From contig CAYHEN010000001.1 of NCBI GenBank assembly GCA_964355745.1, positions 17-64,016 on the forward strand: a stretch of 64,000 nucleotides of DNA, given 5' to 3'. Below the pieces are notes generated by a model. That model was not told where the DNA came from. It did no database searches and was given only the letters and a program-made list of their open reading frames with translations. The position numbers and the translations under genes were made by a program. The number at the start of each line of letters is the position of its first letter. The first letter of the stretch is position 1. The stretch is from Candidatus Woesearchaeota archaeon (GTDB lineage Archaea; Nanobdellota; Nanobdellia; Pacearchaeales; GW2011-AR1). Positions 3,128-31,411 of the stretch are shown one piece after another.

Positions 3128-4578
3128 ATGACATTTGTTTGATTAATCCTCCTTTAGATAAAAAAACAACAAGCAAATTTCCTATGTCTGGAGTTCCTTT
3201 GGGAATTGCGTGTTTAGCAGCTTATCTAAGAGAGAGAAAAATATCCTCACAAGTCATAGATGCTCCTATAAAAGGATGGAATTTTGAAAAAACAGCCATA
3301 GAAGCCATTAAATCCGGAGCAAAGATAATAGGAGTCAGTTGCTTAACAGAAAATAGATATTCCGCCTTAAAAACATTAGAAGAAATTAAAAAAAGAGATC
3401 CTGAAATCATCACAATAATCGGGGGATTGCATGCTACTTTCTTAGACAGATTATTGCTGGAAAATTATAAGTTTATTGACATTGTTGTCAGAGGAGAGGG
3501 AGAAGAAACCTTGTACGAATTAATCAAGGCAATAAAGAACAAAAAATCCATAGATAAAATTTTAGGAATCTCCTTCAGAAAGGGGAAAGAGGTAAAAATT
3601 AATCTTCCCAGATGCTTCATTGAGAGTATAGAAAACCTTCCTCTTCCTGCTTATGATTTATTCCCTATGAAAGAATACCCTCTGCCTCCTGATGTTAAAA
3701 ATGTGAAGCAAACAACTTTAGTAACAACTTCAAGAGGGTGCCCTATGGGATGTAAGTTCTGCGAAACAACTCTGGCTTGGGGAAAAAAAGTAAGAAGTAC
3801 CTCTGCTGAAAAGTTGTTTGAACAGGTTAAACAGTTAAATAAGGAATATGGAATTGATTATATCAGATTTGCCGATGATTTATTCACTCTTAAAAAAGAA
3901 AAAGTTATGAGATTTTGTGAGTTAGTAATCAAAAATAAGCTGCCTATCAAATTCAGGATACAGGCAAGAGTGGATACTGTTGACGAAGAAATGCTAAAAA
4001 TGTTAAAAAAAGCGGGTTGTGATCTGATTGAATATGGAGCAGAAGCAGGCTCTGATAAAGTCTTAAGAGCTATTGGAAAGAATATAACAATTGAGAGAAT
4101 AAAAAGAGCTTCTGCTTTAACAAAAAGGATTGGAATTGAACTAAAATTCTTTTTAATCATAGGTTCTTTGGAAGAAATTCCAGAAGACACCTGGGAAACT
4201 TTCGAATTAATAAAAGAAACAAGACCAGACTGGATAGGCATTAATGCTCTGACGATATATCCTGGAACTTATGTTTATGACATTGCAAAAAAAGAGGGGC
4301 TAATCAGCGACGATTTATGGCTTCATTATATAAATCCCAAAACAGGAAATGCCCCATTATATACAAAGAATTATTCAGACAAAGAAATGATTTTTTTGGC
4401 TCAATTAGGGCATGTTTGGGGTTGCAGGAATTCTGACAAAAAGAAATCTTATTCCTCATTGGAAAAAATACTCGCATTTTTATTAACAGAAAATTTTGCA
4501 AGGCTACTTGTTAAGAATAAAATTACGAGAAAAATTGCTGCTAATGTAGCATGGATTTTTTCTCCTCTTTTGCCATGA
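3124..4578 (+). CDS. B12-binding-domain radical SAM protein (class B type)
   Basis: N-terminal Rossmann-like B12-binding-type domain (IIGVSCLTENR...IIGGLHAT). Then SRGCPMGCKFC, the CxxxCxxC rSAM cluster. ATGA overlap with both neighbours. Confidence 0.8.
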   Translation: MNDICLINPPLDKKTTSKFPMSGVPLGIACLAAYLRERKISSQVIDAPIKGWNFEKTAIEAIKSGAKIIGVSCLTENRYSALKTLEEIKKRDPEIITIIGGLHATFLDRLLLENYKFIDIVVRGEGEETLYELIKAIKNKKSIDKILGISFRKGKEVKINLPRCFIESIENLPLPAYDLFPMKEYPLPPDVKNVKQTTLVTTSRGCPMGCKFCETTLAWGKKVRSTSAEKLFEQVKQLNKEYGIDYIRFADDLFTLKKEKVMRFCELVIKNKLPIKFRIQARVDTVDEEMLKMLKKAGCDLIEYGAEAGSDKVLRAIGKNITIERIKRASALTKRIGIELKFFLIIGSLEEIPEDTWETFELIKETRPDWIGINALTIYPGTYVYDIAKKEGLISDDLWLHYINPKTGNAPLYTKNYSDKEMIFLAQLGHVWGCRNSDKKKSYSSLEKILAFLLTENFARLLVKNKITRKIAANVAWIFSPLLP

Positions 4579-5573
4579 GAATTTTAGTTACAGGAGCCAG
4601 TGGATTTATTGGAAGCCATCTAGCTGAAAGGCTTGTTAAGGAAAAATATGATGTTAGAGTTTTGATTAGAAAAGAAAACCCCAAAAGAAGAAAAGACTCT
4701 TTGGAATTGCTTAAAAAATTAAAAGTAGAAATTATCAAAGGAGATTTGCTGGACAAAGAATCTTTGAAACATGCGATTAAAAATACAGATGTTATTTTTC
4801 ATTTGGCTGCAATAGCAAGACCAATGGCTATTCCTGATGAAGCATATTTTAAAGTAAACGAAGGAGGAACAAGAAATTTATTGGAGGTTTGTAGGGGTAA
4901 GAAAATAAAAAAAATAATCATAATGAGCAGCGTCTCTGCTGTAGGGACGACTAAAAACGGAATAGCAGTAAACGAACAAACAGAATGCAAACCAGTAGAC
5001 GTTTATGGGTGGAGCAAGCTCGCTGAAGAAAATGTTGCTATGGAGTATTTTAACAAGTACAAAATGCCTATTGTTATATTAAGGCCCCCGATGGTTTTTG
5101 GTGAAAGAGATTTTGAAATGCTCAAATTATTCAAAATTATAAGCAAGAGATTTTTTCCGATAAGCAGCAATATTAAGTGCATGGAATTTTTATATGCCGG
5201 AAATTTAGCCGAGGCATGCTTATTAGCAATGAAAAAAGGGAAAAATGGGGAGATATATCATATTTCAAATGGAGAGCATTACAGCATTAATGAAGTAGTC
5301 CATGCGATAGAAAAGGCGGGAAATAAAAAAATTTTTCCTGTGCAATTTCCAAAATTTATTATTATCTTTGGAGGCTATGTCTTGGAAACTCTTGGGAAAA
5401 TTTTCCATTTTCATCCGCCATTTAAACATGATACAATAGATTGGATGACTAAACAACTCTGGTATACTGACATCTCGAAAGCAGAAAGAGAGTTGATGTA
5501 TAAACCAATTTTCTCGCTTCAAGAAAGCATAAAAAAGACAGCAAATTATTATAAAGAGAGGGGTTATTTATAG
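4575..5573 (+). CDS. NAD-dependent epimerase/dehydratase (extended SDR)
   Basis: MRILVTGASGFIGSHL glycine-rich NAD-binding motif and the YGWSK YxxxK catalytic motif. Start trimmed to ATG 4575, which overlaps the upstream stop (ATGA). Track end coordinate kept. Confidence 0.8.
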   Translation: MRILVTGASGFIGSHLAERLVKEKYDVRVLIRKENPKRRKDSLELLKKLKVEIIKGDLLDKESLKHAIKNTDVIFHLAAIARPMAIPDEAYFKVNEGGTRNLLEVCRGKKIKKIIIMSSVSAVGTTKNGIAVNEQTECKPVDVYGWSKLAEENVAMEYFNKYKMPIVILRPPMVFGERDFEMLKLFKIISKRFFPISSNIKCMEFLYAGNLAEACLLAMKKGKNGEIYHISNGEHYSINEVVHAIEKAGNKKIFPVQFPKFIIIFGGYVLETLGKIFHFHPPFKHDTIDWMTKQLWYTDISKAERELMYKPIFSLQESIKKTANYYKERGYL

Positions 5574-7010: not shown

Positions 7011-7538
7011 ATGGTTGACAAATTATCTGCTACTTATCTTAATAAAAATCCGATAATAAGAATTTTTAGCAGAACAAAAATAAAAATTGCTCTTATAATA
7101 GCGGATTTAAAAAAAGACGATTTAATATTGGATTTTGGATGTGGACAGGGTTGGCTGAAAAATAATCTTAAAGGACAGGGCTATAATATTATAGGATATG
7201 ACATAACTCCAGAGCACAGCGATGTGAAAGATTACACTAAAATAAAACCAGATAAAATATTTGCAATGGATGTTTTTGAGCATATCCCAAAAGAGGAAGT
7301 TAGGAAAACTATTAAAAATTTCAAAAAAATGAACCCTAATTTTGAACTCATAACTTCTATTCCCACAGAAAATTGGATTTCAAGAAAGGCGAGAAAGCTT
7401 CTGGGAAAGAGCGAGAGAGTTAAAGACCACATAACCAACCTGAAAGAGATTAAGGAAATTTTAAAAGAAGAATTGAAATTAGCAAAAAAATTTAATTTCC
7501 TGACAGTTAGCTATATCGCCAAATTTAAGAATATTTAA
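7011..7538 (+). CDS. Class I SAM-dependent methyltransferase
   Basis: ILDFGCGQGW (motif I) and DVFEHIP (post-motif II), as in Methyltransf_11/23. Confidence 0.65.
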   Translation: MVDKLSATYLNKNPIIRIFSRTKIKIALIIADLKKDDLILDFGCGQGWLKNNLKGQGYNIIGYDITPEHSDVKDYTKIKPDKIFAMDVFEHIPKEEVRKTIKNFKKMNPNFELITSIPTENWISRKARKLLGKSERVKDHITNLKEIKEILKEELKLAKKFNFLTVSYIAKFKNI

Positions 7539-9099
7539 TTTCATAAATAACAGCAACTGGCTTTTCCTGTTGGTAATATGCCTGAACAGGCATCATACTA
7601 GAATTATGTCTCTCTGGATAAGAGTACATCCAAGGTTCATGATATTCAAAGGAAGATAACATTAGGTATCTTGGTTTTATTCTTGATAAATTTCTTTGGA
7701 ATGTTGCTTCATCTGCCCCCATCTGGCCTAAGCCATAAGTGGTTCTCTCAGAATAATAAGTTATTTGTGGACGAGATTCAGAGATTATTATGTCTTGCGG
7801 ATTTGAATTTTCTTTCATCCATATTCCTGCCTGCTGTACTTCTAAATAAGAAGTCAGTTTGTTGTCTATCAAACCATTTGACCAAGCATAATTTGAAGGA
7901 GCACTACTAGTAAGGTTTATTATTAAAAGCAGTAAAAGAAAAATCATTGAAAGAGCATATATTACTTTCTTGCTTATTTTTGGATAATGCTTGTTTATTA
8001 GATTTCCTGCTTTTATTATAGGAGTTGCTGCAATTAAGAACAAAAATGGGAGAGTTGAAAGAATGTATCTGTGTTCCACCAATTGAGTTATATAACCTAA
8101 AACCAAGAATGGAACAACAATCCACAGGAAGATAAAAAATTTCTTTTGAACTTCCTCATTCTTGAAAATCTTATCCAATCCAAGAAACATGTCCTGAAAG
8201 AAAATAAATATTCCTATCACAAACAAAACAAGAATAGATTTGGTGAGAATATATGGCAAATCTTTGAAATAATCAAATATTGTTGAAACACTCCTTACAT
8301 TAGGTGTTGTGCTGGAAACTCCTGAAACTCCAAAATAGTGAGAAAGAATATCTGTAAAAATATTTCCATAGTGCGTCCAGTATAAAACAAAGAATGGGAG
8401 AAGAACTGCAAATGCCAAACCAACAGTTATCCAAAGGTGTTTATTCTTAATGAATTTGAATTTCTCCCTTGTAAATATGAAAACAAGGAAAGGAAGAGCA
8501 AACATCGCAAACTGGAATCTTGTTAACAATGAAAGAGCATAAAAAACTCCAAACAGGTATAAAAATTTATTTCCTTCTTTAAGAACATATCCTTTCCAAA
8601 AAAATAACAGAGCAAGCAGAAGAAAAAATGTTGCCGGAATATCTGTTAATATCCTTCCTGTAAAAAATAAAGAAACCCAAGAAAATAATACTCCTAAAGA
8701 CACTAAAATAGCAGTTTTTTTATCAAACATTTTAGAGATTATAAAATAAGAGAGGGCAACTAGAGATGTTGACATCAACATAACCAAAAACCTTACTCCT
8801 ATCTCCCCTAAACCAAATTTAAAAAATACAGCGCCGATTAGCGCCCATAGAAAACCTCTTCTGTAATACCAGATATCCCCTATATTCAATCCAAGCCCCC
8901 ATTCTTTAGCTGTAGAGAAATAATCTCCCTCGTCCCACCAAAGAGGCTGATGTGCAGTTTTTAAGAAAATCAAAAATCTTATTATAAATGCGGCTATTAG
9001 AAGAACAATAAATATTTTATCATAATTATCTTTTATCATAGAAGAAAGTTTTTTCTTTATAGAATTTTTTCTCTTTTCTATGTCTTCTTCCATTAACAA
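7525..9099 (-). CDS. GT-C fold membrane glycosyltransferase (PMT/ArnT-like, GT39/GT83 family)
   Basis: At least 10 predicted TM helices. N-terminal loop motif PLWWDEGDYFSTAKEW, resembling the DE/DD loop of PMT/ArnT-type lipid-linked-sugar transferases. Confidence 0.6.
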   Translation of the reverse strand: MLMEEDIEKRKNSIKKKLSSMIKDNYDKIFIVLLIAAFIIRFLIFLKTAHQPLWWDEGDYFSTAKEWGLGLNIGDIWYYRRGFLWALIGAVFFKFGLGEIGVRFLVMLMSTSLVALSYFIISKMFDKKTAILVSLGVLFSWVSLFFTGRILTDIPATFFLLLALLFFWKGYVLKEGNKFLYLFGVFYALSLLTRFQFAMFALPFLVFIFTREKFKFIKNKHLWITVGLAFAVLLPFFVLYWTHYGNIFTDILSHYFGVSGVSSTTPNVRSVSTIFDYFKDLPYILTKSILVLFVIGIFIFFQDMFLGLDKIFKNEEVQKKFFIFLWIVVPFLVLGYITQLVEHRYILSTLPFLFLIAATPIIKAGNLINKHYPKISKKVIYALSMIFLLLLLIINLTSSAPSNYAWSNGLIDNKLTSYLEVQQAGIWMKENSNPQDIIISESRPQITYYSERTTYGLGQMGADEATFQRNLSRIKPRYLMLSSFEYHEPWMYSYPERHNSSMMPVQAYYQQEKPVAVIYEIKYS

Positions 9100-9117: not shown

Positions 9118-9672
9118 TTATTTGTTTTTATTGTTTAAAATATAATGAGCTGCTTCTAACATATCTCTCGCTACAAACTCTGCTTCTTTTACTAGATTTT
9201 TTTCTTCTCGTATCAGAATATGAATTGTTCTGCATCCTGCATTTTTTCCAGTCTGTATATCTCTTAAAGAATCTCCAATCATCCAAGATTCTCTTAAATT
9301 TAGATTAAAATCTCTTGCTGCTTGTTCAAGCATTCCTGTTTTGGGTTTTCTACAATCACAATCAGATTTATATTTTTCTATTGTTCCGTTTGGATGATGC
9401 GGACAGAAGTATTCTGCATTTATGAAAATTTCATGTTCTTTTAATTTTTCATGCATTTCTTTTTTAAATCTAAAATAATCTTCTTCTGTATAATATCCTC
9501 TTGCAATTCCAGACTGATTTGTAATGATTATTAATTTGTATCCTGCTTGTCTCAGCAATTTTAATCCTTCTACAACATTAGGGAGAATTTCCAAATCTTC
9601 TATTTTGTAGACATAACCTTTATCCACATTAATAGTTCCATCTCTGTCCAAAAAAACTGCTTTATTTTCCAT
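9118..9672 (-). CDS. gmhB: D-glycero-D-manno-heptose 1,7-bisphosphate phosphatase GmhB (HAD family)
   Basis: VFLDRDGTIN, IIITNQSGIARGY, YFCPHHP and CDCRKPKTGM all match GmhB signature segments. Confidence 0.8.
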   Translation of the reverse strand: MENKAVFLDRDGTINVDKGYVYKIEDLEILPNVVEGLKLLRQAGYKLIIITNQSGIARGYYTEEDYFRFKKEMHEKLKEHEIFINAEYFCPHHPNGTIEKYKSDCDCRKPKTGMLEQAARDFNLNLRESWMIGDSLRDIQTGKNAGCRTIHILIREEKNLVKEAEFVARDMLEAAHYILNNKNK

Positions 9673-10720
9673 TTTTTAATATTTTTAAGTTTTGATAAAG
9701 GGACAAAAGAAAATTTCTATTGTTTTCTTTTATATAATGCATTTCTCTCGCATTCATTCTATGAAAAGTTTTGCAAAAACGCAAGTAATATGCGGGATTG
9801 CTTTTTTCTGGCTCGAATCCTTTGTTCCAATCCCCTCCTTCCTGAATATCATTTATAACAATTGTAAAATCTTCAATTCTCCTATTTTCCTGTCTTGCTA
9901 AATTTCTTGCCATAGATAAGGATTTTTCAAATATCATTGGAGACATTATTGCAGAACCCACTGAAATATAAATCCCTTCTTCTAATTTATTTACGCTATC
10001 AGCAAATTTCAGGAAATCTATTTCAGCGCATTTTCCTACTGAAGCACCATCGCTTAAGGGATGAGTATAAATTATATCATAACCAAATCCAGGATGGACT
10101 GTAAATGGAATTTTCATAAATACAGAATCCTGCACAGAATATTTTTTATAAGGATGATTAACTGTAATTTTGCAAGAATCTATGCCTTGTTTCATAAGTT
10201 TTTCTTTTAAGTTCTTGTTCTCATAAACTTCTCCAAGAATAGTTATCTCCTCATCATGAATCATTTCGCATACAGCTTCTCCATATCCTTTTCCTTTTTC
10301 TGCTCCTGAAATTAATGCTAAATTGATATATCGCCCTGTCTCTTCCCATAAACCAAATTGCCCTTCTTTGATATATTCTTCAACATCCTCTTCTGTCTTG
10401 CCTTGAAATGCAAACTCCCAGTCGTGAATAGAACCTGCCCCGTTTGTTGCTAGATGAGTAACAAAATCTTCTTCAATCATTCTCCTCAAAATTAAACCTA
10501 ACCCATTTTTTATCAGATGAGCTCCATAAACCATAATCACTTGTTTATCTCTTTTTCTTGCAACAATAATTTCTCTTGCTATTTTATTTATTAATTTAGA
10601 ATTTTGTGAATGGCAAAAAGGTGAATCATCTGGATTTACTGCTATTTCCTCTATAGAAGATTGATTTTTTCTTAATCCCAAGGGAAGAATTTTTAATTTG
10701 GTTCTGTCAAATAATCCCAT
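9662..10720 (-). CDS. Deoxyhypusine-synthase-like (DS family) protein
   Basis: VYGAHLIKNGLGLILRRMIEEDFVTHLATNGAGSIHDWE parallels the DHS core (..GYTSNLISSG...VDVLVTTAGGVEED). IVINDIQEGGDWNK parallels the DHS C-terminal INTAQEFDGSD segment. Recalled alignment, not a search. Confidence 0.5.
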   Translation of the reverse strand: MGLFDRTKLKILPLGLRKNQSSIEEIAVNPDDSPFCHSQNSKLINKIAREIIVARKRDKQVIMVYGAHLIKNGLGLILRRMIEEDFVTHLATNGAGSIHDWEFAFQGKTEEDVEEYIKEGQFGLWEETGRYINLALISGAEKGKGYGEAVCEMIHDEEITILGEVYENKNLKEKLMKQGIDSCKITVNHPYKKYSVQDSVFMKIPFTVHPGFGYDIIYTHPLSDGASVGKCAEIDFLKFADSVNKLEEGIYISVGSAIMSPMIFEKSLSMARNLARQENRRIEDFTIVINDIQEGGDWNKGFEPEKSNPAYYLRFCKTFHRMNAREMHYIKENNRNFLLSLYQNLKILKNGK

Positions 10721-10723
10721 GTT

Positions 10724-12133
10724 TTATTCTTCAGATTTGGAATTTTTTATTTTTTTAATTGTGTCTGTTGTTGACAATTCTGAAAGCCCCTTAGGAAGAT
10801 ATATTTCCCCGTTGTAACTTTCTACAATTCTTCTTTCTTCCTGATTTATCGTATCTATCGTATAATCTCCTGATTTAAGATAGACATGGGGTTGTAATCT
10901 TTTTAGATATTCTGCTGCTTTCCCAAAAGGAAATATTGTTACATAATCCACAAAGCCCATTCCAGATAAAATTTCTGCTCTCTGTTCTTCATTATAAACA
11001 GGCCTCCCAGGACCTTTTAGTTTTCTAACAGATTCATCTGAATCCAAACCAACAATTAAAACATCCCCCCTTTTTCTGGCCTGTTCAAGAGAATATTTAT
11101 GTCCTGCATGAAATAAATCGAAACATCCATTTGTCCAAACAATTCTTCTCTGTTCTCTCTTTAATTCTCTCACTATCTCAGATAATTCATCAAGAGTTTT
11201 TAGTTTTCTTTCTTCTCCAGAAATTGCTTTTTCTAATTCCCATAATTTAACCTGGTAAGTCCCAACCTTACTCACTGAAATTCCTGCTGCATGATTTGCC
11301 AGAATTACTGCCTCTTCAAGAGAAGCTCCTGAAGCTAAAGATAAACAAATTGCTGCATTTGCAGTATCTCCTGCTCCTGCAACATCGTATACCTCTCTTG
11401 AAGATGTAGGTATCTCAACTTCATTATCTGAAAATAATGCCATTCCCTTTTCTCCGCGAGTAATAAGAACATTACAATTCAACATTTTTTGTAAATCTCT
11501 TCCTGCAGAATGAATCTCTCTCTGATTAGACATCTCTAAGGCTTCTTTTTCATTTGGAGTAATTAAAAAAGAATTTTTGTAGAAAGATATATTCTGTGGT
11601 TTAGGATCAACTACAATTTTTTTTCCAAGAGAGTTTAAAAAATCCATCAAATCTCCTGTTATTGTTCCTTTCGCATAATCTGAAATTAATATTAAATCTG
11701 AATTTCCAATTTCTCTTTTCATTGTTTCTAAAGTATCAGGACTAAAAATTTTTAGAGAATTCTCTTCATAATCTATTCTTAAAAGTTGCTGATTTCTACT
11801 CCTCACCCTTATTTTTAAGGTAGTAAGAGCATTCTTATCCAAAAAATATTCTATTCCTCTCTTTCCTAATATTTCTGATAGAACATTTGCATTATTATCT
11901 CTTCCAGCAAACCCAAACAAAGAAACATTTCCTCCAAGTGAGGCAAGATTTGCTGCAGTATTTGCTGCTCCTCCAGGCTCATAAAGTTCCTCTTTAACAT
12001 TAACTATCTGGATTGGCGCTTCAGGGGAGATTCTTGAAACCTCGCCTATAATGGTCTTGTCAAGCATAACATCTCCAATAACAGTTATCTTTCTCTTAGA
12101 AAAGCCCTTTAAGATTTCTAATAACCTTTCCAT
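10724..12133 (-). CDS. hldE: Bifunctional heptose-7-phosphate kinase / heptose-1-phosphate adenylyltransferase HldE (RfaE)
   Basis: N-domain: GDVMLDKTIIGEVSRISPEAPIQIV...GGAANTAANLASLG...DVAGAGDT (PfkB kinase, nearly identical signature to E. coli HldE). C-domain: VWTNGCFDLFHAGH...GLDSDESVRKLKG (cytidylyltransferase-like). Confidence 0.85.
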   Translation of the reverse strand: MERLLEILKGFSKRKITVIGDVMLDKTIIGEVSRISPEAPIQIVNVKEELYEPGGAANTAANLASLGGNVSLFGFAGRDNNANVLSEILGKRGIEYFLDKNALTTLKIRVRSRNQQLLRIDYEENSLKIFSPDTLETMKREIGNSDLILISDYAKGTITGDLMDFLNSLGKKIVVDPKPQNISFYKNSFLITPNEKEALEMSNQREIHSAGRDLQKMLNCNVLITRGEKGMALFSDNEVEIPTSSREVYDVAGAGDTANAAICLSLASGASLEEAVILANHAAGISVSKVGTYQVKLWELEKAISGEERKLKTLDELSEIVRELKREQRRIVWTNGCFDLFHAGHKYSLEQARKRGDVLIVGLDSDESVRKLKGPGRPVYNEEQRAEILSGMGFVDYVTIFPFGKAAEYLKRLQPHVYLKSGDYTIDTINQEERRIVESYNGEIYLPKGLSELSTTDTIKKIKNSKSEE

Positions 12134-12204
12134 TAATTTTTCTACAAAATCCAGTATAAAAAGATTATTATCTAAAGATATATATTTGAGATTATTTTGT
12201 AGTT

Positions 12205-13593
12205 TTAATCAAGGAAAGAGGACAAAGCCTCCTCATATAACCCTTCCACATAATCCAATTGTTCAAGTTCTTCTAAAGAAACCCACCTAAACTCTTCTGC
12301 TTCTTCATTTATCTTTACATCTCCTTTTTTTACATTTACAAGATAACATTTTCCTAATACCCTTTCCCCATTTTCCCAAGAATAAGAATAATCTGAAATC
12401 TTTTTTATTATTTGATTAAGTTCAAGATTAGTTTCTTCTTTTATCTCTCTTCTTAATGCTTCTTCAAGGGTCTCATTGTCTTCTACAACTCCTCCAGGAA
12501 AAGCCCATTTCTTCTTATGAATCCCTTCGTTTCTTTTAACTATCAAAATTTTTTCATTATCTTTTATAATAGCATTAACAACTCTCTTTGTCTTTTGAGA
12601 ATTTTCCAAGGCATTTAAAACTTCATCAGCAGAAATACTCTTTACCAATTCCTTGTCATATTCGTTCATTTTTTCTGGAAAAAAATCATATAATCTTGGG
12701 GAAATTATTTTTTTTAATAATCCATAATCCTCAATTTCATTTGGAGATGTGCAAAAAAATAATCCTATTGTTGGTTTTTTAAGAGCTAAGGAAACATGCA
12801 AAGAAGTACTATCTGAACAAACCATTTTGGTACATAAATTTACTAATGACGCAAATTCTTTCAAAGTATTATTAGGATTATTTCTATAAACTTTAATTCC
12901 TTTTTCTTCTAAGTCCTTGGAGAATTTCTCATGTATATCTATTTCATCCGGCCCCCCAAACAATAATATTTCACATCCTCTTTGTTTAGCCTTCTCAATA
13001 AATTCTTTAATATTTTCTAAATCCCATACTTTAGAAGGCCATCTAGTAGAAGCACCCATATGTATTCCTATTAATTTTTTTGTATTAATGTTATTTTTAT
13101 TTACAAAATCTTCTGCATATTTTATATTCCTTTCAGTTAAATAAAGGGGGTGATGTTGTTTTTTATAAGGAAGTTCTGCTGCTTCAAACATCATTTGCTG
13201 ATAAGTTTTGGTATTTATTTTTTTTAATTTATCATCAAAAAGAGTATTAAGATAATATTCTGCAGGAAAATTAAATGCGGCCGGATATCCCCCTTCTGAA
13301 AAAAATCCATATTTTTCTTTTGCTTTTATCTCCTCTGCTAATTTTGTTGCATCTTCTTCTATATCAAAATTTAATAAAATATCAAATTCTTCTAAAAATT
13401 CTTTTAAATTAAGGGGAATTGTTAAAATTTTGTTTATATAAGGACTCATTTCTAAAATTTCTCTAGATGGGGGTTTTGTAATCCAACTTATCTCAGAATC
13501 AGAATATTTCTCTTTTATCGCTATTAATGAAGGAAGTGTTCTGATTACATCTCCTTTTGCTCCAAGTTTTATTACCAATATCTTCTTTACCAC
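12205..13593 (-). CDS. GT9 heptosyltransferase fused to a C-terminal NUDIX hydrolase domain
   Basis: N-terminus KILVIKLGAKGDVIRTLPSLIAIK matches the GT9 (ADP-heptose:LPS heptosyltransferase) start. C-terminal ~130 aa has the NUDIX box GGVVEDNETLEEALRREIKEETNL. Confidence 0.7.
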   Translation of the reverse strand: MVKKILVIKLGAKGDVIRTLPSLIAIKEKYSDSEISWITKPPSREILEMSPYINKILTIPLNLKEFLEEFDILLNFDIEEDATKLAEEIKAKEKYGFFSEGGYPAAFNFPAEYYLNTLFDDKLKKINTKTYQQMMFEAAELPYKKQHHPLYLTERNIKYAEDFVNKNNINTKKLIGIHMGASTRWPSKVWDLENIKEFIEKAKQRGCEILLFGGPDEIDIHEKFSKDLEEKGIKVYRNNPNNTLKEFASLVNLCTKMVCSDSTSLHVSLALKKPTIGLFFCTSPNEIEDYGLLKKIISPRLYDFFPEKMNEYDKELVKSISADEVLNALENSQKTKRVVNAIIKDNEKILIVKRNEGIHKKKWAFPGGVVEDNETLEEALRREIKEETNLELNQIIKKISDYSYSWENGERVLGKCYLVNVKKGDVKINEEAEEFRWVSLEELEQLDYVEGLYEEALSSFLD

Positions 13594-13655: not shown

Positions 13656-14075
13656 ATGAAAGTTTATATTGCCGGAAAATTAGGAACAGAAAGTGAGAAG
13701 AAACAGCTGGAAGAAATAGCAGAGATATGCAATTCTCTTGATATTAAAACTTTTTTGCCTCATAAAGATATAGGAATTTGCAAGGATGTTAAAGATGTGG
13801 GTGATATATTTAAAGGAGATATAATCGAAGGACTCAGAAATTGTGATTTAGTAATCGCCTTGCTTGATGGACTTCATGTTGGGGCAGGAACTGCTTGGGA
13901 ACTCGGTTATGCTTATGCTAAAGGAATTCCTACTATTGGCGTAAAGACAGACGAAGAAATTGAAGATGCAATTGAATATTTAAGTGCAATTTTAATAGCA
14001 TCAACACCAATTGTTAAATCTTTGAATGAATTAAAGGAAAAATTAAAAGAATTCAAAAATAAAAAATTAATCTAA
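13656..14075 (+). CDS. Nucleoside 2-deoxyribosyltransferase-like (NDT/LOG-like fold) protein
   Basis: MKVYIAGKLG...DLVIALLDGLHVGAGTAWELGYAYAKGIPTIG resembles the Nuc_deoxyrib_tr family. Confidence 0.45.
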   Translation: MKVYIAGKLGTESEKKQLEEIAEICNSLDIKTFLPHKDIGICKDVKDVGDIFKGDIIEGLRNCDLVIALLDGLHVGAGTAWELGYAYAKGIPTIGVKTDEEIEDAIEYLSAILIASTPIVKSLNELKEKLKEFKNKKLI

Positions 14076-14990
14076 TGGGCTAGTTGATTTTATTTCTATT
14101 TCTCTCCAACCATCAGAATACACTTTTTCATCATTCATATCTTTAAACGCTTTATTATAAATTTTATATCTTGCTTTTAAAAGATTTAATGTCCATGAGA
14201 ATTCTTTAAAATTTTTAGGATAAAAGATAGTATGAAAAAAACCATATTTAATTTCATTCCAAAAAGTTTTTGTTCTTGGCATTTCTGGAAATAATTTGCT
14301 GAGATTCTCGTGTCCTTTTATATTTCTTAATTTCTGATTTTCCCAATCTTTTATATTATCTGGATTTTTTACATAAACTTCTACATTAGAAAGATACTTT
14401 ATTTTGTATCCTTTTTGCCAGAATAAATATGGGATTACAGAATCTTCTGAAACATCAAGCGGAAAATCCTGGATTACTCCTTTGCGTATTGCAAATAAAT
14501 ATCCAGAACATTCAAAGAATTTTTTCTCATTAGATAATTTTTCCCTAATCCTATGAATTCCTGAAAGTAATAAATGGGACCAATAACCAAATTGAGTATT
14601 TCTCTTATCAACAGGAATTGGTTTTCCTGTGACACAACCGATTTCTTTGTTTTTGAAAGCAGTTGAAATTTCATTAATCGCATTATCTGAAACATAAACA
14701 TCTCCGTCTGTAAGAATGAATATATCTTCTTTCTTATCTGATTTCAATTTTTTAAACAATAGATTAAGAGCATAACTTTTTCCCTCTCCAGGATCCAGAA
14801 AAAATCCTACTCTTTTATCTTTTATTTCTTTTTTTATAAACTCCCTAACCTCTTCAAATGGATCGCAGATAATTATTCTAAACTCTTCTTGTGTATTTTG
14901 ATTTAAGAAAGCGTTAACTGCTCTTAAAGTGGATTTGGGTTCATTATAAGAGGTTACGATTATATCTATCATTTTATTAAACAGAATCAA
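14067..14990 (-). CDS. Glycosyltransferase family 2
   Basis: MIDIIVTSYNE start, and an ILTDGD DxD motif. GT-A fold. Confidence 0.7.
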   Translation of the reverse strand: MILFNKMIDIIVTSYNEPKSTLRAVNAFLNQNTQEEFRIIICDPFEEVREFIKKEIKDKRVGFFLDPGEGKSYALNLLFKKLKSDKKEDIFILTDGDVYVSDNAINEISTAFKNKEIGCVTGKPIPVDKRNTQFGYWSHLLLSGIHRIREKLSNEKKFFECSGYLFAIRKGVIQDFPLDVSEDSVIPYLFWQKGYKIKYLSNVEVYVKNPDNIKDWENQKLRNIKGHENLSKLFPEMPRTKTFWNEIKYGFFHTIFYPKNFKEFSWTLNLLKARYKIYNKAFKDMNDEKVYSDGWREIEIKSTSPLD

Positions 14991-15221: not shown

Positions 15222-15935
15222 ATGAAACATGCTTTAGTATTATGCTCTGGAGGATTGGACAGTGTTGTAACTGCACATTATGTAAAAAAAAGATTAAATT
15301 GCTCAGATGTTAAGATAATTTTTTTTAATTATAATCAAAAGAGCCTTGTTCAGGAAAGAAATTGCTCTAAAAAATGTGCCAAAGAGATTTCTGCAGAATT
15401 TATTGAAATAGATGTAAGATGGCTGGGAAATATTACAAGAAATTTGGGTAATAAGCCAAAAAAAATTACGAGAAAAAAATTAAAAGATAGTTCTGAAGAG
15501 TCTAAGAAGTTATATGTCCCATGCAGGAATATTATCTTTCTTGTTTATTCTCTCGCATTTGCAGAGTCTTTATATATTAAAAGGAAGAAAAAGTATGACT
15601 TATTTGTAGGATTCAAGAACGAAGGAAAAGAAGCATATCCAGATACAACCCCTAAGTTTGTAAATGAAATGAATAGATTAAGCAAAATAGGTTGCTATAA
15701 AGATTTTCAAATTAAAGCCCCATTAATAAAAAAAGACAAAGAAGATATTATAAGACTTGGAGCCCAACTCAGAGTTAATCTAAAAAATACATTCAGCTGT
15801 TATAACAGCATTGGGGGGAAGCATTGTGGTTACTGCTTATCCTGCAGATTAAGGCAGGAGGGGTTTTATTGGGCAGATATAAAAGACCCTACACACTATA
15901 AGGTAAAAATGAAAGATTTTAGAAAATCTAATTAA
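15222..15935 (+). CDS. queC: 7-cyano-7-deazaguanine synthase QueC (PP-loop ATPase)
   Basis: ALVLCSGGLDS PP-loop, and a C-terminal Zn-binding CYNSIGGKHCGYCLSCRLR cluster. Confidence 0.8.
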   Translation: MKHALVLCSGGLDSVVTAHYVKKRLNCSDVKIIFFNYNQKSLVQERNCSKKCAKEISAEFIEIDVRWLGNITRNLGNKPKKITRKKLKDSSEESKKLYVPCRNIIFLVYSLAFAESLYIKRKKKYDLFVGFKNEGKEAYPDTTPKFVNEMNRLSKIGCYKDFQIKAPLIKKDKEDIIRLGAQLRVNLKNTFSCYNSIGGKHCGYCLSCRLRQEGFYWADIKDPTHYKVKMKDFRKSN

Positions 15936-17587: not shown

Positions 17588-19462
17588 ATGAAAGCATTGA
17601 TATTAGCAGGAGGAAGGGGGAGCAGATTAAACGAATTCACAAAAGACAAAAACAAGAGCATGATTCCTCTTCTTGAAAAGCCTATAATAGAATATAATTT
17701 AGAGCACGCAGTTGAAGCAGAAGTCAGCGAGATTATAATTGTTATAGGATATAAGGGGAAAGAAATTAAGAAATATATCGGAGAGGAATACAGAGGAATT
17801 CCTGTGAGATATGCTACACAAAAAGAACAGAGAGGACTTGTTCATGCAATCGAATGTGCTAAAGAAGCCATTGGAAATTCTGATTTTTTTCTGATGCTGG
17901 CAGATGAGATTATTCCAAAAGCAAGAATAAAAGACATGGTTAAGAAATTCAAGAAAGAAGAATTATTTGCTGTTTGTGGTGTGGTTTATGAAAGCGATAA
18001 ATTAAGCATAGGAAAGACTTATTCTGCAATGACAAATGAAAGAGGAAGAACTTTTAGATTAATAGAAAAACCAAAAGGGGTCATAAATAAAATTAAAGGG
18101 ACAGGACATTGCATTTTGAAAAATGAAATGCTCGGATATATTGATAGAACTCCGATAAATGCTAACAGAGGGGAAAAAGAATTAGTTGATTGGATTCAGG
18201 TTGCTATTGACGATGGAAAAAAAGTCTATGTCTATCCTATAAACAAAAGCGGATATGTAAATATTAATACAAAAGAGGATTATGAATTGGCAAAAGAATT
18301 GATAAGAAAATCAAATCTAAAAGTTTTGATTGTTCACACGCAGATGAAATATCTTGGAGGAGCAGAATTGCTTATTACTGAACTGGCTAATTGGATGACA
18401 AAAAAGGGAATTAAGAATGATATCCTTGCTCTGTCAAAATCAGGAGAAGCTGAGAGGAATCTGATAAATACAAAAATAATCATTCCAAGGCACAATATTA
18501 ACTTACAACCGCCGGGATTCAAAACAACAAAAGAGATAATAGAATTTATCAGAGTTTATAGAAGAGAGTTAAGAAAGATAATAAAAAATTATGATGTAAT
18601 TAATTTTCATAATTTTCCTGTTACATGGACTTTATCTCCAAGAAAAAAGCCCTGCGTTTGGATGTTGAATGAACCTCCAAATTTATGGAGCAAACCAAAA
18701 GCAAATTTTATTTTAAAGATATTAAACAAAATAAGAAACAGAATAGACAAGGAGATTGTTAAAAATTCTATTGACATCATTTGTGTGGCAGATGAGTTCA
18801 ATAAAGAAAGGACAGAAGAGAGGTATAGGAAAAAGGTAAGAATTGTTTATTATGGGGTTAATCATGAATTTTTTTCTAAAGGAAATGCGAATAATGCTAT
18901 AAAAAAATTTAATCTAAAAAACAAGTTTGTTGTTATTCAGTCAGGCATGATAATTGATACTAAAAACCAGTTAGAAAGTGTAAAGATAATAAATAAAATC
19001 AAGGAGAAAATTCCTTCTGTTCTTTTAGTCTTAGCAGGAAAAATTGCAGATGAAGCATACAAAAAGAAAATAGACAACCATATACAAGAAAATAAGCTTG
19101 AAAAAAATATCTTATTTACTGGAAATTTAAACAGAGAAGAATTAAGAGATTTATACAAGGCTTCAGATATCGGATTATTTCCTGTTGGCAGGCAGGGAGG
19201 GGGGCTTGCGCCCTTTGAAATGCTATGTGCAGGAGTGCCAATAATTGTATCAGAAGATATAGGTGCTGCTTCTATAATAAAAAAATTTGATTTAGGGATA
19301 GCAACAAAAGATTATGCAAATTCTTTATTGGAGATTCATAAAAATAAAAAGCAATATAAAAAGCAGGCAAAAATAGCCTCTGAATTTATCCAAAAAAATT
19401 TGGGCTGGAATGTTTTCAGCGATAAAATGATAAAGGCATTTGAAGATGCAATGAGAAGATAA
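17588..19462 (+). CDS. Sugar-1-phosphate nucleotidyltransferase fused to a GT4 glycosyltransferase
   Basis: N-terminus MKALILAGGRGSRL (G1P thymidylyl/uridylyltransferase signature). C-terminus GGGLAPFEMLCAGVPIIVSEDIG (GT4/GT-B EX7E-region-like). Confidence 0.7.
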   Translation: MKALILAGGRGSRLNEFTKDKNKSMIPLLEKPIIEYNLEHAVEAEVSEIIIVIGYKGKEIKKYIGEEYRGIPVRYATQKEQRGLVHAIECAKEAIGNSDFFLMLADEIIPKARIKDMVKKFKKEELFAVCGVVYESDKLSIGKTYSAMTNERGRTFRLIEKPKGVINKIKGTGHCILKNEMLGYIDRTPINANRGEKELVDWIQVAIDDGKKVYVYPINKSGYVNINTKEDYELAKELIRKSNLKVLIVHTQMKYLGGAELLITELANWMTKKGIKNDILALSKSGEAERNLINTKIIIPRHNINLQPPGFKTTKEIIEFIRVYRRELRKIIKNYDVINFHNFPVTWTLSPRKKPCVWMLNEPPNLWSKPKANFILKILNKIRNRIDKEIVKNSIDIICVADEFNKERTEERYRKKVRIVYYGVNHEFFSKGNANNAIKKFNLKNKFVVIQSGMIIDTKNQLESVKIINKIKEKIPSVLLVLAGKIADEAYKKKIDNHIQENKLEKNILFTGNLNREELRDLYKASDIGLFPVGRQGGGLAPFEMLCAGVPIIVSEDIGAASIIKKFDLGIATKDYANSLLEIHKNKKQYKKQAKIASEFIQKNLGWNVFSDKMIKAFEDAMRR

Positions 19463-20692: not shown

Positions 20693-21736
20693 ATGCCAAA
20701 AGTTCTTGTAACAGGGGGATGTGGATTTTTAGGCAGCCATATCTGCGAAATGTATATAAAAAAAGGCTGGGAAGTAATTGCTTATGATAATTTAACAAAG
20801 CATGAGTTTGCAAGGAACCCTTATATGAAGCCAGAAGCAAGATACCACAATCAAAAGTTATTGGAAAAAATAGGAATAAGGGTCGCTGTTGAAGACATAA
20901 GAAACAAAGAAGCATTAATGAAACATACAGAAGGATGTGATTATATATGTCATACTGCTAGCCAGCCAACAATGACTCTTAGCTTGGAAGAGCCTGAACT
21001 GGATTTTTCAACAAATCTTATTGGAACATTTAATGTATTGGAAGCTGCAAGAAGATTCAAAATTCCTGTTGCTTCATGCAATTCTGTGCATTGCTATGGT
21101 CCTGATAAAATTAATTCTGAACTAAGTGAGAGAGAAACAAGGTATGTCAGAGAGCCAGTTGCAATAGATGAGAATGAACCCTTATTGCAGGGAGTTGTAA
21201 CTCCTCTTCACGCTTCAAAATCCTCTGCTGAGAATTATGTGAGGTGTTATATTGATACCTTCAAGATTAAGGCTGCAAGTTTTAGACTCACAGGAATTTA
21301 TGGAGAGAACCAGTTTGGAGGAGAAGACCATGGATGGGTTGCGAATTTTGCAATCAGGAACCATCTTGAAATGCCATTAACTATTTTTGGAACAGGAAAA
21401 CAGGTTAGAGATATTTTGTATGCAACAGACGTTGCAGAAGCATTTGATGCATTTCACAGAAATCAAAAACCCGGAATCTACAATATTGGGGGTGGAGGAA
21501 AGACTATGGTTTCTCTACTTGAATGCATCAGTTTAATAGACAAAATCTCTAGAAAAAAGTCTGATATAAGATTTGACAAAGACAGATTTGGAGATTTGAG
21601 ATATTATGTTTCTGATATAAGCAAGGCAAAAAAAGAACTGGATTGGAACCCAAAAGTTCTTCCTGAAGAAGGCGTCAGTAAATTGATAGGATGGATAAAG
21701 GGTAATGAAGATTTATTCATAAGAAGTTTATCTTAA
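20693..21736 (+). CDS. NAD-dependent epimerase/dehydratase (extended SDR)
   Basis: VLVTGGCGFLGSH NAD-binding motif. CYGPDK YxxxK motif. Confidence 0.75.
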   Translation: MPKVLVTGGCGFLGSHICEMYIKKGWEVIAYDNLTKHEFARNPYMKPEARYHNQKLLEKIGIRVAVEDIRNKEALMKHTEGCDYICHTASQPTMTLSLEEPELDFSTNLIGTFNVLEAARRFKIPVASCNSVHCYGPDKINSELSERETRYVREPVAIDENEPLLQGVVTPLHASKSSAENYVRCYIDTFKIKAASFRLTGIYGENQFGGEDHGWVANFAIRNHLEMPLTIFGTGKQVRDILYATDVAEAFDAFHRNQKPGIYNIGGGGKTMVSLLECISLIDKISRKKSDIRFDKDRFGDLRYYVSDISKAKKELDWNPKVLPEEGVSKLIGWIKGNEDLFIRSLS

Positions 21737-30352: not shown

Positions 30353-31411
30353 ATGTCAAAAGATTTAGAAAATCTATCAGATGAAGACAGAACCTTCTTA
30401 GATAAAGCAAGTCAATTTCTTTCCTTAGATAAATACGGAGATTTTTTATTAAGGTGGGCAAGAGCTATTGAAGCTTATGGAACCCCAAGAGATTTTGTGT
30501 ATTCAACATATTATGAACAGACTAATGTTAATCTTGATGGTAAACTATATCCAATGCAGTATTTTATTTCTGAAAATAATGCACAGAGAGGAGCATTAAT
30601 GAATAAACAAAAGGCAGAAGCTGAGGCAAGAAAAACAAGGGGTGAAAAACCAAGATGGCCAAATGATGGAAATATTGCTTGTTTTCTTTGTGATAATATT
30701 GGGCAGGCAATAAGTAGAAGTGATAATATTGTTTATGATTTGGGAATTCATCTCATATTACCAAACAAATATCCCTCTCAATTCGGTCACTCTCTTTTTG
30801 TTCCAAAAGAGCATGATGATGAAACAAAAAGAGTAACACCCCAACAAATTCCAGAAGAGAGAGCAACATTATATGCCCCTGAAGAGGGGAAAACTCGAGG
30901 AAATATTCTTACAAGAGATTATCTGGATGCTGTGATTGAGTCTTGTGATAAATATCATTTATTTGGTGTTAGAAATCATGTACTTGATGGAATGAGTATT
31001 CCGGGTCACGACCACTTCCACATTTTCCCTCAAGACTTGCCTATATCTTCATTAGTTAGCTATGTTACTAAAGCAAAAAGAAAAACAGAATTTGGTCCAA
31101 CAATTTATTTATTAGAAAATACTCCCTTTGATACATTACTTATTCAAAGAGAAAATAGAAGAGATGTAACTTCTGTTGCTATTTCCCTCCTTGAAAAAAT
31201 GGAAAGAGACAATCAAGTATTTACTCTTACTTATAATAGAGGACAACTTTTTGTTAGCCCAAGGAACAGAGAACAAGTAAATAATAAAAGAATCCAAATT
31301 GGAGCAGGAGTTCCAACTCATTTTTCTGATACAAAAGGGGAAGAATTTTTACAAAGATTAGATAAATTTGTTCCGAAAAGAGGAGAATATAGCTGGGAAA
31401 AATACATGTGA
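30353..31411 (+). CDS. HIT-superfamily / GalT-like nucleotidyltransferase-phosphorylase
   Basis: Histidine-triad motif GHDHFHIFPQ in the C-terminal half. Length and two-lobed layout resemble the GalT/Ap4A-phosphorylase branch. Confidence 0.45.
   Translation: MSKDLENLSDEDRTFLDKASQFLSLDKYGDFLLRWARAIEAYGTPRDFVYSTYYEQTNVNLDGKLYPMQYFISENNAQRGALMNKQKAEAEARKTRGEKPRWPNDGNIACFLCDNIGQAISRSDNIVYDLGIHLILPNKYPSQFGHSLFVPKEHDDETKRVTPQQIPEERATLYAPEEGKTRGNILTRDYLDAVIESCDKYHLFGVRNHVLDGMSIPGHDHFHIFPQDLPISSLVSYVTKAKRKTEFGPTIYLLENTPFDTLLIQRENRRDVTSVAISLLEKMERDNQVFTLTYNRGQLFVSPRNREQVNNKRIQIGAGVPTHFSDTKGEEFLQRLDKFVPKRGEYSWEKYM

Follow-up and report, generated by a model that had tools for sequence, protein, structure and literature searches.

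A probable nucleotide-heptose module in a DPANN archaeon and its association with the uncharacterised GSU2086 protein family

Why should an archaeon, which builds no lipopolysaccharide (LPS), carry enzymes for activating and transferring heptose, and how would it manage when the isomerase that starts the pathway is nowhere to be seen beside them? This question is raised by a gene string on a contig of Candidatus Woesearchaeota archaeon (GenBank assembly GCA_964355745.1, contig CAYHEN010000001.1), of which 64,000 nucleotides (nt), referred to below as the window, were analyzed. Nucleoside diphosphate (NDP)-heptoses are building blocks of the bacterial envelope and potent ALPK1 immune agonists, and the pathway to them is commonly presented as a fixed set of four or five enzymes. 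An initial annotation had described four minus-strand open reading frames (ORFs) of the window as a bacterial-type operon for ADP-heptose, suggestive of horizontal acquisition and lacking the isomerase GmhA. The four ORFs agreed exactly with the ORF list (Table 1), and the string was found to extend farther, to a membrane glycosyltransferase gene. From 13593 down to 7525 on the minus strand it consists of a glycosyltransferase family 9 gene fused to a NUDIX domain (GT9::NUDIX), the HldE gene, a gene for a protein with the fold of deoxyhypusine synthase (DHS), the GmhB gene, and a PMT_2 glycosyltransferase gene, in that order. We consider it likely that this string is a module, typical of its lineage among DPANN archaea of the Woesearchaeota/Pacearchaeota type, that makes and transfers nucleotide-activated heptose within a large surface-glycan island. 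The HldE/GmhB/GT9 core is the known NDP-heptose route and is already labelled as such in public annotation. It is not the heptose core but the gene for the DHS-fold protein, a member of the GSU2086 family, that is the element of the locus most deserving attention, although the initial annotation had not singled it out, and the locus offers a testable handle on this uncharacterised and very widespread family.

The predicted heptose-activating core and its host

The genes of the string are closely packed. GT9::NUDIX is separated from hldE by 71 nt, the hldE stop codon lies 3 nt from the GSU2086-family gene, the latter overlaps gmhB by 11 nt, and the co-directional PMT_2 gene follows 18 nt downstream of gmhB. 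The same gene order was observed in six loci (L001, L005, L169, L170, L171, and L172), and all of these except L005 were seen to have a PMT_2 gene in the equivalent position. In two other loci, a conserved 136-amino-acid (aa) ORF of coiled-coil appearance and without a family match stands between hldE and the GSU2086-family gene (L174:9588-9998 and L006:2016-2444); it was considered as a possible cupin and, after checking, was found not to be one.

The assignment of the second and fourth genes was examined with hidden Markov models (HMMs), BLASTP, and motif inspection. Residues 8 to 466 of the HldE ORF aligned collinearly with residues 5 to 475 of Escherichia coli HldE (37% identity; E = 1.5e-92), Pfam placed a PfkB kinase domain (PF00294) at residues 14 to 294 and a CTP_transf_like domain (PF01467) at residues 333 to 441, and the motifs GAGD (at 253), HAGH (at 342), and LSTT (at 453 to 456) were intact. 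The NCBIfam model NF008454 scored 407.5 bits over residues 8 to 465, and TIGR02198 and TIGR02199 scored 308.9 and 150.6 bits, whereas the best nonheptose model, that for ribokinase, scored 104.6 bits; HldE families outscored other PfkB and cytidylyltransferase models by about 300 bits. A homologue search was made in a collection of 5.8 billion proteins. All of the best 120 proteins listed were of the HldE type, not generic PfkB kinases or cytidylyltransferases, and all those with a named source came from Pacearchaeota, Nanoarchaeota, or unclassified archaea. Several homologues from archaeal metagenome-assembled genomes (49 to 56% identical) are labelled by NCBI as bifunctional HldE or heptose 1-phosphate adenylyltransferase. 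The GmhB ORF, 40% identical to E. coli GmhB, passed both GmhB-specific NCBIfam models (TIGR00213, 187.2 bits with a cutoff of 149.6; NF006506, 185.4 bits with a cutoff of 178), and it possesses DRDGT at residue 9, the Cys/His zinc loop CPHHPNGTIEKYKSDCDC (CPHH..CDC) at residue 90, and GDSLRD at residue 133. The domain calls of the initial annotation for HldE and GmhB are supported, and on the strength of these scores and motifs the two identities are taken to be real.

According to a commentary (PMC11461863, citing Tang et al., Science 2024, doi 10.1126/science.adk7314), archaeal NDP-heptose enzymes are functional, and archaeal HldE-type enzymes made ADP-heptose in vitro. The archaeal enzymes of Tang et al. 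resemble those of the window in comprising a kinase/nucleotidyltransferase class ("HENase") and a phosphatase class (PMC11461863). The C-terminal motif of the window HldE is GLSELSTT in place of the consensus (F/L)xxGxSTT; by the numbering in the commentary, the STTR5 arginine of Tang et al. has no counterpart five residues before the serine in either GLSELSTT or KDEKLSTT, the corresponding sequence of a stand-alone nucleotidyltransferase of the window (32137-32646). The commentary makes no mention of a DHS-fold partner, a GT9::NUDIX fusion, or an HldE fused to a cupin. A literature search retrieved nothing that joins deoxyhypusine-synthase-like proteins with hldE or heptose, nothing that joins a heptosyltransferase with Woesearchaeota, and, for DPANN archaea and heptose, incidental mentions only. 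In the searchable literature, the GSU2086-family partner, the GT9::NUDIX fusion, and the cupin-fused HldE are undescribed.

Both GT9 ORFs of the window, the fused one in the string and a second one at 37256-38203, passed the Glyco_transf_9 model PF01075, with 81.6 bits for the former (cutoff, 22). The two are 26% identical to each other (E = 9e-23) and about 22% identical to WaaC and WaaF. With the equivalog models of the LPS heptosyltransferases, TIGR02193, TIGR02195, and TIGR02201 (cutoffs, 185.3, 134.6, and 170.2 bits), the first GT9 scored 72.7, 59.9, and 53.8 bits and the second scored 41.5, 38.1, and 30.1 bits; judged by these profile scores, neither is an orthologue of WaaC, WaaF, or WaaQ. 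In the PDB, the GT9 domain matched the GT9 protein 3tov best, with WaaF and WaaC next. The C-terminal domain of the fusion scored 79.7 bits with the NUDIX model PF00293, and its Nudix box, G-VVEDN-E-TLEEALR-REIKEETNL (GX5EX7REIKEETNL), keeps the glutamates of REUXEE and has Asn in place of the penultimate Gly. The GT9::NUDIX fusion was present in 49 of the 120 homologue clusters listed, all named members being Nanoarchaeota or Pacearchaeota, and the other listed clusters were stand-alone GT9s, 60 to 69% identical across the GT9 part. GT9 domains of this clade were also found fused to HAD (P0310), to SIS (P0339), and to HldC and NUDIX together (GT9::HldC::NUDIX, in L171). These fusions to HAD, SIS, and HldC tie the clade independently to the heptose pathway and support a heptose donor.

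By homology, the kinase domain of HldE would phosphorylate D-glycero-D-manno-heptose 7-phosphate at C1, GmhB would remove the 7-phosphate, and the nucleotidyltransferase domain of HldE would then form an NDP-heptose, most likely ADP-heptose, of the kind that members of the GT9 family are expected to use as donor. The isomerisation of sedoheptulose 7-phosphate that precedes these steps would be performed by a GmhA of the SIS type or by a cupin isomerase, encoded off this contig, and no 6-epimerase would be needed if the sugar transferred were D,D-heptose. The acceptor may well be an archaeal lipid-linked or protein-linked glycan and not LPS, because the PMT_2 gene is constant downstream and because in L172 an island with AglB/STT3 and an AglH-like GT4 includes gmhA as well. 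The NUDIX domain of the fusion probably trims or proofreads the pool of nucleotide sugars, as the GDP-mannose hydrolase genes found in polysaccharide clusters would suggest. WcaH/NudD, the GDP-mannose mannosyl hydrolase, is a NUDIX enzyme of the colanic-acid cluster that is thought to control the nucleotide-sugar pool. It is likewise encoded with glycosyltransferases, but the NUDIX domain of the window differs in being fused to GT9 and in being nearest to proteins of the MutT/NudI type. In comparison with the E. coli pathway to ADP-L-glycero-beta-D-manno-heptose, the window shares a two-domain HldE, GmhB, and GT9 transferases; unlike that pathway, it has neither GmhA nor HldD, its GT9s are nonorthologous and one is fused to NUDIX, a GSU2086-family gene is inserted between hldE and gmhB, a PMT_2 gene is added, and its archaeal host has no LPS.

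The host is a DPANN archaeon, and the earlier reading of an archaeal host is supported. At the 3' end of the window the genes for Rpb4/RpoF, DUF655, S13, S4, S11, and RpoD stand in archaeal order, and homologues of the window proteins are named as Woesearchaeota, Pacearchaeota, and Nanoarchaeota. An identical copy of the locus is known from groundwater of Hainich well H43 that had passed to the 0.1-um fraction (ENA ERZ1292629).

The isomerase and epimerase steps

To look for the isomerase, a GmhA HMM was built from E. coli, archaeal, and bacterial sequences and run on the six-frame translation of the window. The best match had an E value of 0.39 at 4.9 bits, compared with 209 to 215 bits for archaeal positive controls. 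No SIS domain was found among the window ORFs of at least 100 aa that were scanned with Pfam (about 60 of 68); the few that were left out of the scan were short and mostly nested or overlapping, and they were covered by the six-frame GmhA-HMM and cupin searches. No cupin homologue was present anywhere in the window, and the window HldE has no C-terminal cupin. Two short-chain dehydrogenase/reductase (SDR) genes of the window, at 4551-5573 and 20693-21736, had been suggested as substitutes for the epimerase HldD, but they scored only 94.0 and 53.4 bits with TIGR02197 (cutoff, 274.6) and matched HpnA-like and dTDP-glucose 4,6-dehydratase-like models best. They were rejected as HldD on these scores, which left the suggestion without support and the statement that the window has no HldD intact. 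The window encodes three of the five activities of the ADP-L,D-heptose pathway.

Since the window is nearly the whole of the 64,152-nt contig, the absence of GmhA from the organism cannot be concluded; in E. coli, gmhA, gmhB, hldE, and hldD are all unlinked to one another. Ten archaeal loci in which an HldE-type gene adjoins a DHS-like gene, the window included, were therefore compared, and gmhA was sought within 10 kb. It was found nearby in three loci (L006, L086, and L172), two others (L169 and L170) have an HldE fused to a cupin, and five have neither. In L006 and L086, gmhA lies directly upstream of hldE. In L172, it encodes a SIS_2 protein that scored 208.6 bits with the GmhA HMM and lies 8 kb from hldE, beside AglB/STT3. 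The stretch concerned (L172:8593-19710; JGI Ga0374082_1005942) carries hldE, a GSU2086-family gene, gmhB, GT2, and PMT_2, followed by genes for a GtrA-like protein, an AglH-like GT4, AglB/STT3 (924 aa), and GmhA, which suggests that the heptose of L172 feeds an AglB-dependent N-glycan.

Of the syntenic relatives with annotated neighbouring genes, L169 and L170 are the closest, and their HldE proteins (L169:8238-10001 and L170:8233-9999; GCA_040961665.1) are 587 to 588 aa long by virtue of an extra C-terminal cupin. This domain scored 37.8 bits with Cupin_2, 33.2 bits with Lyx_isomer (cutoff, 20.8), and 23.4 bits with MannoseP_isomer (cutoff, 23.6). Its nearest PDB entries were D-lyxose and D-mannose ketol-isomerases, and its best NCBIfam match was the PMI half of GMP_PMI. 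HldE proteins with such a cupin made up 8 of the 120 homologues listed. Because lyxose and mannose isomerases convert aldoses of manno configuration into their ketoses and back, and GmhA performs a reaction of this type on the seven-carbon phosphate, the fused cupin is a credible candidate for a non-orthologous, non-SIS sedoheptulose 7-phosphate isomerase in genomes of the L169/L170 type. DPANN archaea would then have solved the isomerase step in at least two ways, by a GmhA of the SIS type or by a cupin fused to HldE. A metagenome scan returned mostly bacterial loci at about 50% identity and short contigs and said little about the linkage of archaeal gmhA. Together, these observations uphold the earlier claim of a missing GmhA step for the window and not for the organism, since relatives carry gmhA or the cupin; the sedoheptulose 7-phosphate isomerase is probably encoded elsewhere in the genome, on another contig.

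The GSU2086 family and the competing readings

The protein encoded between hldE and gmhB scored 317.9 bits over residues 4 to 343 with the NCBIfam model NF052581 ("GSU2086 family protein"; cutoff, 250). The family is named after a locus tag, a sign that it is uncharacterised, and a literature search for it found nothing beyond one table entry. An AlphaFold2 model made from 43 homologues had a predicted local distance difference test score (pLDDT) of 90.9 and a predicted TM score (pTM) of 0.90. Its top Foldseek matches were the NAD+-binding, C-terminal ornithine-cyclodeaminase domain of AgrE/ArgZ, the archaeal LOR/SDH protein 3c2q, and deoxyhypusine synthases (E = 3e-8 to 1e-4; TM, about 0.45; probability, 1.00; identity, 11 to 17%). 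A PDB sequence search with the single protein gave nothing meaningful, whereas a profile search matched AgrE/ArgZ and 3c2q at residues 40 to 109, the dinucleotide-binding segment, with E values of about 0.006 to 0.009 and a His-Asp in common. The DHS-like fold that had been proposed for this ORF is therefore confirmed by AlphaFold2 and Foldseek together, although the protein is not a deoxyhypusine synthase: PF01916 gave 17.7 bits (cutoff, 27) and TIGR00321 gave 22.7 bits (cutoff, 304), and only the fold and the N-terminal dinucleotide-binding segment are shared. The likeness to DHS and LOR-SDH enzymes (deoxyhypusine synthase, AgrE/ArgZ, and archaeal TIGR00300 proteins) extends to the N-terminal dinucleotide segment, but their context is polyamine or ornithine metabolism and that of the GSU2086 family is sugar phosphate. 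Fold relatives use NAD+ or, in the TIGR00300 cyclodeaminases, a nickel-pincer adenine dinucleotide (PMC13524815); for the GSU2086 family the latter cofactor is a mere lead, because no Lar genes were seen. All 52 positions that are invariant in the family are kept by the window protein, and the five His residues and the Lys/Arg cluster among them would fit a phosphosugar site. Grouped at 90% identity, the family amounts to at least 6,940 clusters, and grouped at 50% identity, to 1,778 clusters with E <= 1e-3; it was found in at least 589 GTDB species, from DPANN archaea, Bacteroidota, Spirochaetota, Planctomycetota, Verrucomicrobiota, Kiritimatiellota, Lentisphaerota, and KSB1 as well as Geobacter.

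Several lines of evidence link this family to heptose enzymes. In Geobacter sulfurreducens, the operon consists of gmhB (GSU2084), hldE (GSU2085), GSU2086, and gmhA (GSU2087), and transposon sequencing (Tn-seq) revealed a common defect of hldE, GSU2086, and gmhA mutants in growth on electrodes, with log2 values of -3.1, -3.2, and -3.7, respectively (PMC5585712). The window and Geobacter are thus alike in having an NF052581 member directly beside hldE in a heptose operon; they differ in that the Geobacter operon has gmhA and provides heptose for LPS, whereas the window is without gmhA and has GT9::NUDIX and PMT_2 in addition. Members of the family were also found fused to an HldC-type nucleotidyltransferase (CTP_transf; P0027, P0100, and P0135) in at least 8 of the 120 homologues listed, to a HAD phosphatase (P0081 and P0166), to PfkB and HAD together (P0131), to PfkB alone (P0195), to SIS (P0186), and to an ARMT1 phosphatase with a nucleotidyltransferase (P0132). 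In the neighbourhoods of 81 loci, a PfkB kinase was present in 56, directly upstream in 49, and a GmhA-like SIS gene was present in 32. The 75 closest bacterial loci had an HldE-like kinase in 51 cases and a GmhA-like SIS gene in 34; none of the 75 had an HldC-type nucleotidyltransferase or a GT9. The bacterial HldE-like kinase is usually a PfkB::HAD fusion of about 630 aa with rfaE domain I as its best NCBIfam match. Two odd fusions were noted (P0133 and P0208), one to a periplasmic-binding-protein/AraC regulator and the other to a PMT_2 membrane glycosyltransferase; the former could be a hint of ligand sensing or an assembly artefact.

Since the kinase/phosphatase pair is the conserved partner of the GSU2086 protein, a phosphoheptose is its likeliest substrate. 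The protein would be a genuine functional partner of this pair. By analogy with fold relatives that hold an NAD+-type dinucleotide tightly for transient hydride abstraction, it may carry out a cofactor-dependent conversion, an epimerisation or a redox isomerisation, of a phosphoheptose intermediate, a suggestion in which our confidence is low. Such a conversion might set stereochemistry or feed the pool of heptose 7-phosphate by another route. The joint proposal, that the GSU2086 protein performs an unrecognised phosphoheptose step with a bound dinucleotide before activation and that the HldE-fused cupin of sister genomes is a nonorthologous replacement for GmhA, is offered as tentative, and we hold it with rather less assurance than the heptose module itself. 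In any case, archaea and bacteria alike have a very widespread uncharacterised family tied, physically and genetically, to the kinase and phosphatase of the heptose route. Its characterisation could reveal an additional step, or a new heptose isomer, in a pathway that matters to medicine and glycobiology and would clarify what DPANN cells display on their surface during attachment to a host.

Several observations weigh against the reading of the string as a heptose module with GSU2086 as a partner. No known type of isomerase was found in the 64-kb window, in L005, or within 10 kb on either side in L171, L174, and L085. HldE fell below the NCBIfam equivalog cutoffs of NF008454, TIGR02198, and TIGR02199 (521, 345, and 181.5 bits), which are annotation thresholds and no biochemical criterion; we take these scores to reflect divergence from the bacterial training set. 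The GT9s are only about 22% identical to characterised heptosyltransferases, which leaves their donor specificity a prediction, and the Tn-seq phenotype in Geobacter could reflect a polar effect. The closest bacterial relatives of the GSU2086 protein are encoded in catabolic-looking loci (GH38/GH92, SSF, AGE, and ROK) without a nucleotidyltransferase or GT9, so its role may exceed heptose biosynthesis, and in four archaeal loci (L087, L088, L173, and L013) its gene is an orphan with no sugar genes nearby.

These points also bear on what else the string might be. If the pathway were truly without an isomerase, the DPANN symbiont would scavenge heptose or its 7-phosphate from a host, or the module would be a decaying remnant. 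Patchy metabolism is known in DPANN archaea, and no isomerase was found in the 64 kb of the window, in the 21 kb around its closest relative, L005, or in L171 and L174. We nevertheless judge this explanation unlikely, since isomerases are encoded in relatives, in one case 8 kb from hldE, the gmhA gene of E. coli is likewise unlinked, and no heptose-phosphate transporter was evident; moreover, the ORFs are intact with their catalytic motifs and all of the family-invariant residues of the GSU2086 protein, and the maintenance of the gene string across many genomes indicates selection. That HldE and GmhB act on some other sugar phosphate (a hexose or another heptose isomer), so that the product is not ADP-D-glycero-D-manno-heptose, might be read from the subcutoff HldE scores, from the off-consensus GLSELSTT, and from the company of bacterial GSU2086 genes, namely, an HldE-like kinase::HAD with mannosidases and sugar transporters. 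It is rendered very unlikely by the two GmhB-specific models that GmhB passes, the lead of about 300 bits of the HldE models, and the addition of GmhA, specific to the heptose route, in relatives, as well as by the ADP-heptose that archaeal HldE-type enzymes gave in vitro (PMC11461863). The least probable account, to which we give hardly any credence, is that the operon is an LPS inner-core module recently acquired by horizontal transfer, with a Gram-negative bacterium as donor. The enzyme families are indeed best known from Gram-negative LPS, and archaeal GSU2086 proteins are 53 to 57% identical to some homologues from Bacteroidota, KSB1, and Planctomycetota, with a small bacterial group as their sister in a crude neighbor-joining tree of 55 sequences. 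However, the nine archaeal sequences formed one clade in that tree, HldE, GT9, and GSU2086 have archaeal proteins as their closest homologues until identity falls to about 50%, the GT9s are not orthologous to the Waa enzymes, and no Kdo or lipid A genes were seen. Nor is the operon distinguishable by composition, for which a comparison with the r-protein cluster had been advised: its GC content is 0.311, that of the rest of the contig is 0.313 (whole window, about 0.30 to 0.33), GC3 is somewhat lower (0.193 versus 0.249), and its codon-usage distance ranks an unremarkable sixth among 48 adjacent four-gene sets. The initial annotation had called the route rare in archaea and the operon horizontally acquired. 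Neither view was sustained: the module is ordinary in this lineage, all source-named entries in the HldE and GT9 lists of 120 being archaeal, and nothing in this genome points to exceptional transfer. An ancient inter-domain transfer, lineage-wide and predating the diversification of this DPANN group, is plausible.

Two further readings concern the GSU2086 protein alone. Since no other uncharacterised member of the operon is constant, and since the window, L005, L171, L174, and L085 have no SIS or cupin isomerase nearby, it might itself be the missing sedoheptulose 7-phosphate isomerase, a nonorthologous replacement for GmhA, and its many invariant His, Asp, and Glu residues and Lys/Arg cluster could suit a sugar-phosphate site that binds metal and phosphate. 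Its gene coexists, however, with gmhA in the Geobacter operon, in L006, L086, and L172, and with GmhA-like genes in the 34 bacterial loci mentioned above; the SIS fusion and the coexistence with cupin-fused HldE in L169 and L170 point the same way. A redundant isomerase would hardly persist so consistently, and from this coexistence and fusion we conclude that the protein is not a GmhA replacement, an identity that now appears highly improbable. A role as an HldD analogue, epimerising ADP-heptose with bound NAD(P)+, would suit a protein that takes the slot of the fifth gene in heptose operons without an HldD orthologue, whose fold relatives perform a transient oxidation by bound NAD+ that is the chemical logic of HldD, and that is fused to HldC-type nucleotidyltransferases in the homologues counted above. 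Yet in the 75 closest bacterial loci, where 51 have an HldE-like kinase, the lack of any HldC-type nucleotidyltransferase would leave such an enzyme with no ADP-heptose substrate, and we regard this role as quite unlikely. Action on a phosphoheptose before activation is the reading that we prefer, at the low confidence given above.

Some loci of the family are of interest in their own right. In Mariniphaga anaerophila DSM 26910 (L074:1432-14682) and about 50 similar bacterial loci, the GSU2086-family gene comes right after the PfkB::HAD fusion, and nearby are genes for a GmhA-like SIS protein, a ROK kinase, GH38/GH92 mannosidases, a 3-keto-disaccharide-hydrolase-like protein, an AGE-family epimerase, and an SSF transporter. 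The orphan genes at L087:8001-8972, L088:3085-4086, and L173:10001-11041 are from Nanoarchaeota; their neighbours are hypothetical or unrelated genes, with no sugar-phosphate genes within 8 to 10 kb.

Neighbouring genes and the glycan island

Table 1. Predicted genes of the heptose string and other features of the window
Feature	Positions	Strand	Length (aa)	Evidence or remark
GT9::NUDIX	12205-13593	minus	462	First gene of the string; GT9 at residues ~1-330, C-terminal NUDIX at ~335-450
HldE, predicted bifunctional heptose-7-phosphate kinase (PfkB) and heptose-1-phosphate nucleotidyltransferase	10724-12133	minus	469	HMM, BLASTP, motifs
GSU2086-family protein, DHS / LOR-SDH-like fold	9662-10720	minus	352	NF052581, AlphaFold2 and Foldseek
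GmhB, predicted D-glycero-D-manno-heptose 1,7-bisphosphate 7-phosphatase (HAD-IIIA)	9118-9672	minus	184	HMM, motifs
PMT_2 / ArnT-like GT-C membrane glycosyltransferase	7525-9099	minus		PF13231, 42.8 bits; PF02366, 28.3 bits
Nucleoside 2-deoxyribosyltransferase-like	13656-14075	plus		Pfam; upstream synteny block
GT2	14067-14990	minus		Pfam; upstream synteny block
QueC-like	15222-15935	plus		Upstream synteny block
Stand-alone HldC-like (rfaE domain II-like) nucleotidyltransferase	32137-32646	plus		TIGR02199, 117.1 bits (cutoff, 181.5)
Second GT9	37256-38203	minus		PF01075, 57.1 bits (cutoff, 22)

The three genes upstream of GT9::NUDIX (2-deoxyribosyltransferase-like, GT2, and QueC-like) keep their order in L001, L169, and L171 and are unexpected company for a glycan operon; for the QueC-like gene, the family name comes from the existing (precomputed) Pfam annotation of the same gene in L001 and of its counterparts in L169 and L171. 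Farther along the window, the stand-alone HldC-like gene may encode a second activating enzyme for heptose 1-phosphate or another sugar 1-phosphate. Its product scored 48 bits with the glycerol-3-phosphate cytidylyltransferase model, and the motifs HPGH and LSTT are readable in the translation. It adjoins an HD-domain gene (31418-32095, plus strand) and lies about 5 kb from the second GT9. An ORF at 30353-31411, which at 352 aa equals the GSU2086-family protein in size, was considered as a DHS-like paralogue and rejected, having no similarity to it and no family match.

A glycan island takes up about 50 kb of the window and includes GT2 and GT4 genes, a Wzx-type flippase, NTP-transferase fusions, methyltransferases, a polysaccharide deacetylase, and radical-SAM genes. 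The density of the last is striking, with twelve in about 45 kb (3124-45668): seven are B12-binding (starting at 3124, 5575, 15932, 21770, 36003, 39697, and 44058), and five are of the SPASM or another type (starting at 19465, 26796, 29318, 32660, and 34934). This density presumably reflects C-methylation or other tailoring of the glycan. One of them belongs to a split thiamine pyrophosphate (TPP) enzyme at 32660-34950 on the minus strand, in which a transketolase pyrimidine-binding domain and a radical-SAM/SPASM domain are joined in one ORF (32660-34303) that adjoins an E1_dh-like, TPP-binding half (34303-34950). An E1_dh-like fragment beside a B12 radical-SAM gene was also seen on JGI contig 3300072015, which carries the HldC::GSU2086 fusion protein P0027, the same as in L085. 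Among the NTP-transferase fusions, an NTP_transferase::GT4 protein of 624 aa is encoded at 17588-19462 and a GHMP-kinase::NTP_transferase protein of 600 aa at 50009-51811, both on the plus strand and both presumed to activate sugars; a fusion similar to the latter is present in L086. Finally, a homologue of the RuBisCO large subunit is encoded at 48645-49889 on the minus strand (PF00016, 169 bits); it is presumably of form III, belonging to the archaeal AMP salvage pathway and typical of DPANN archaea.

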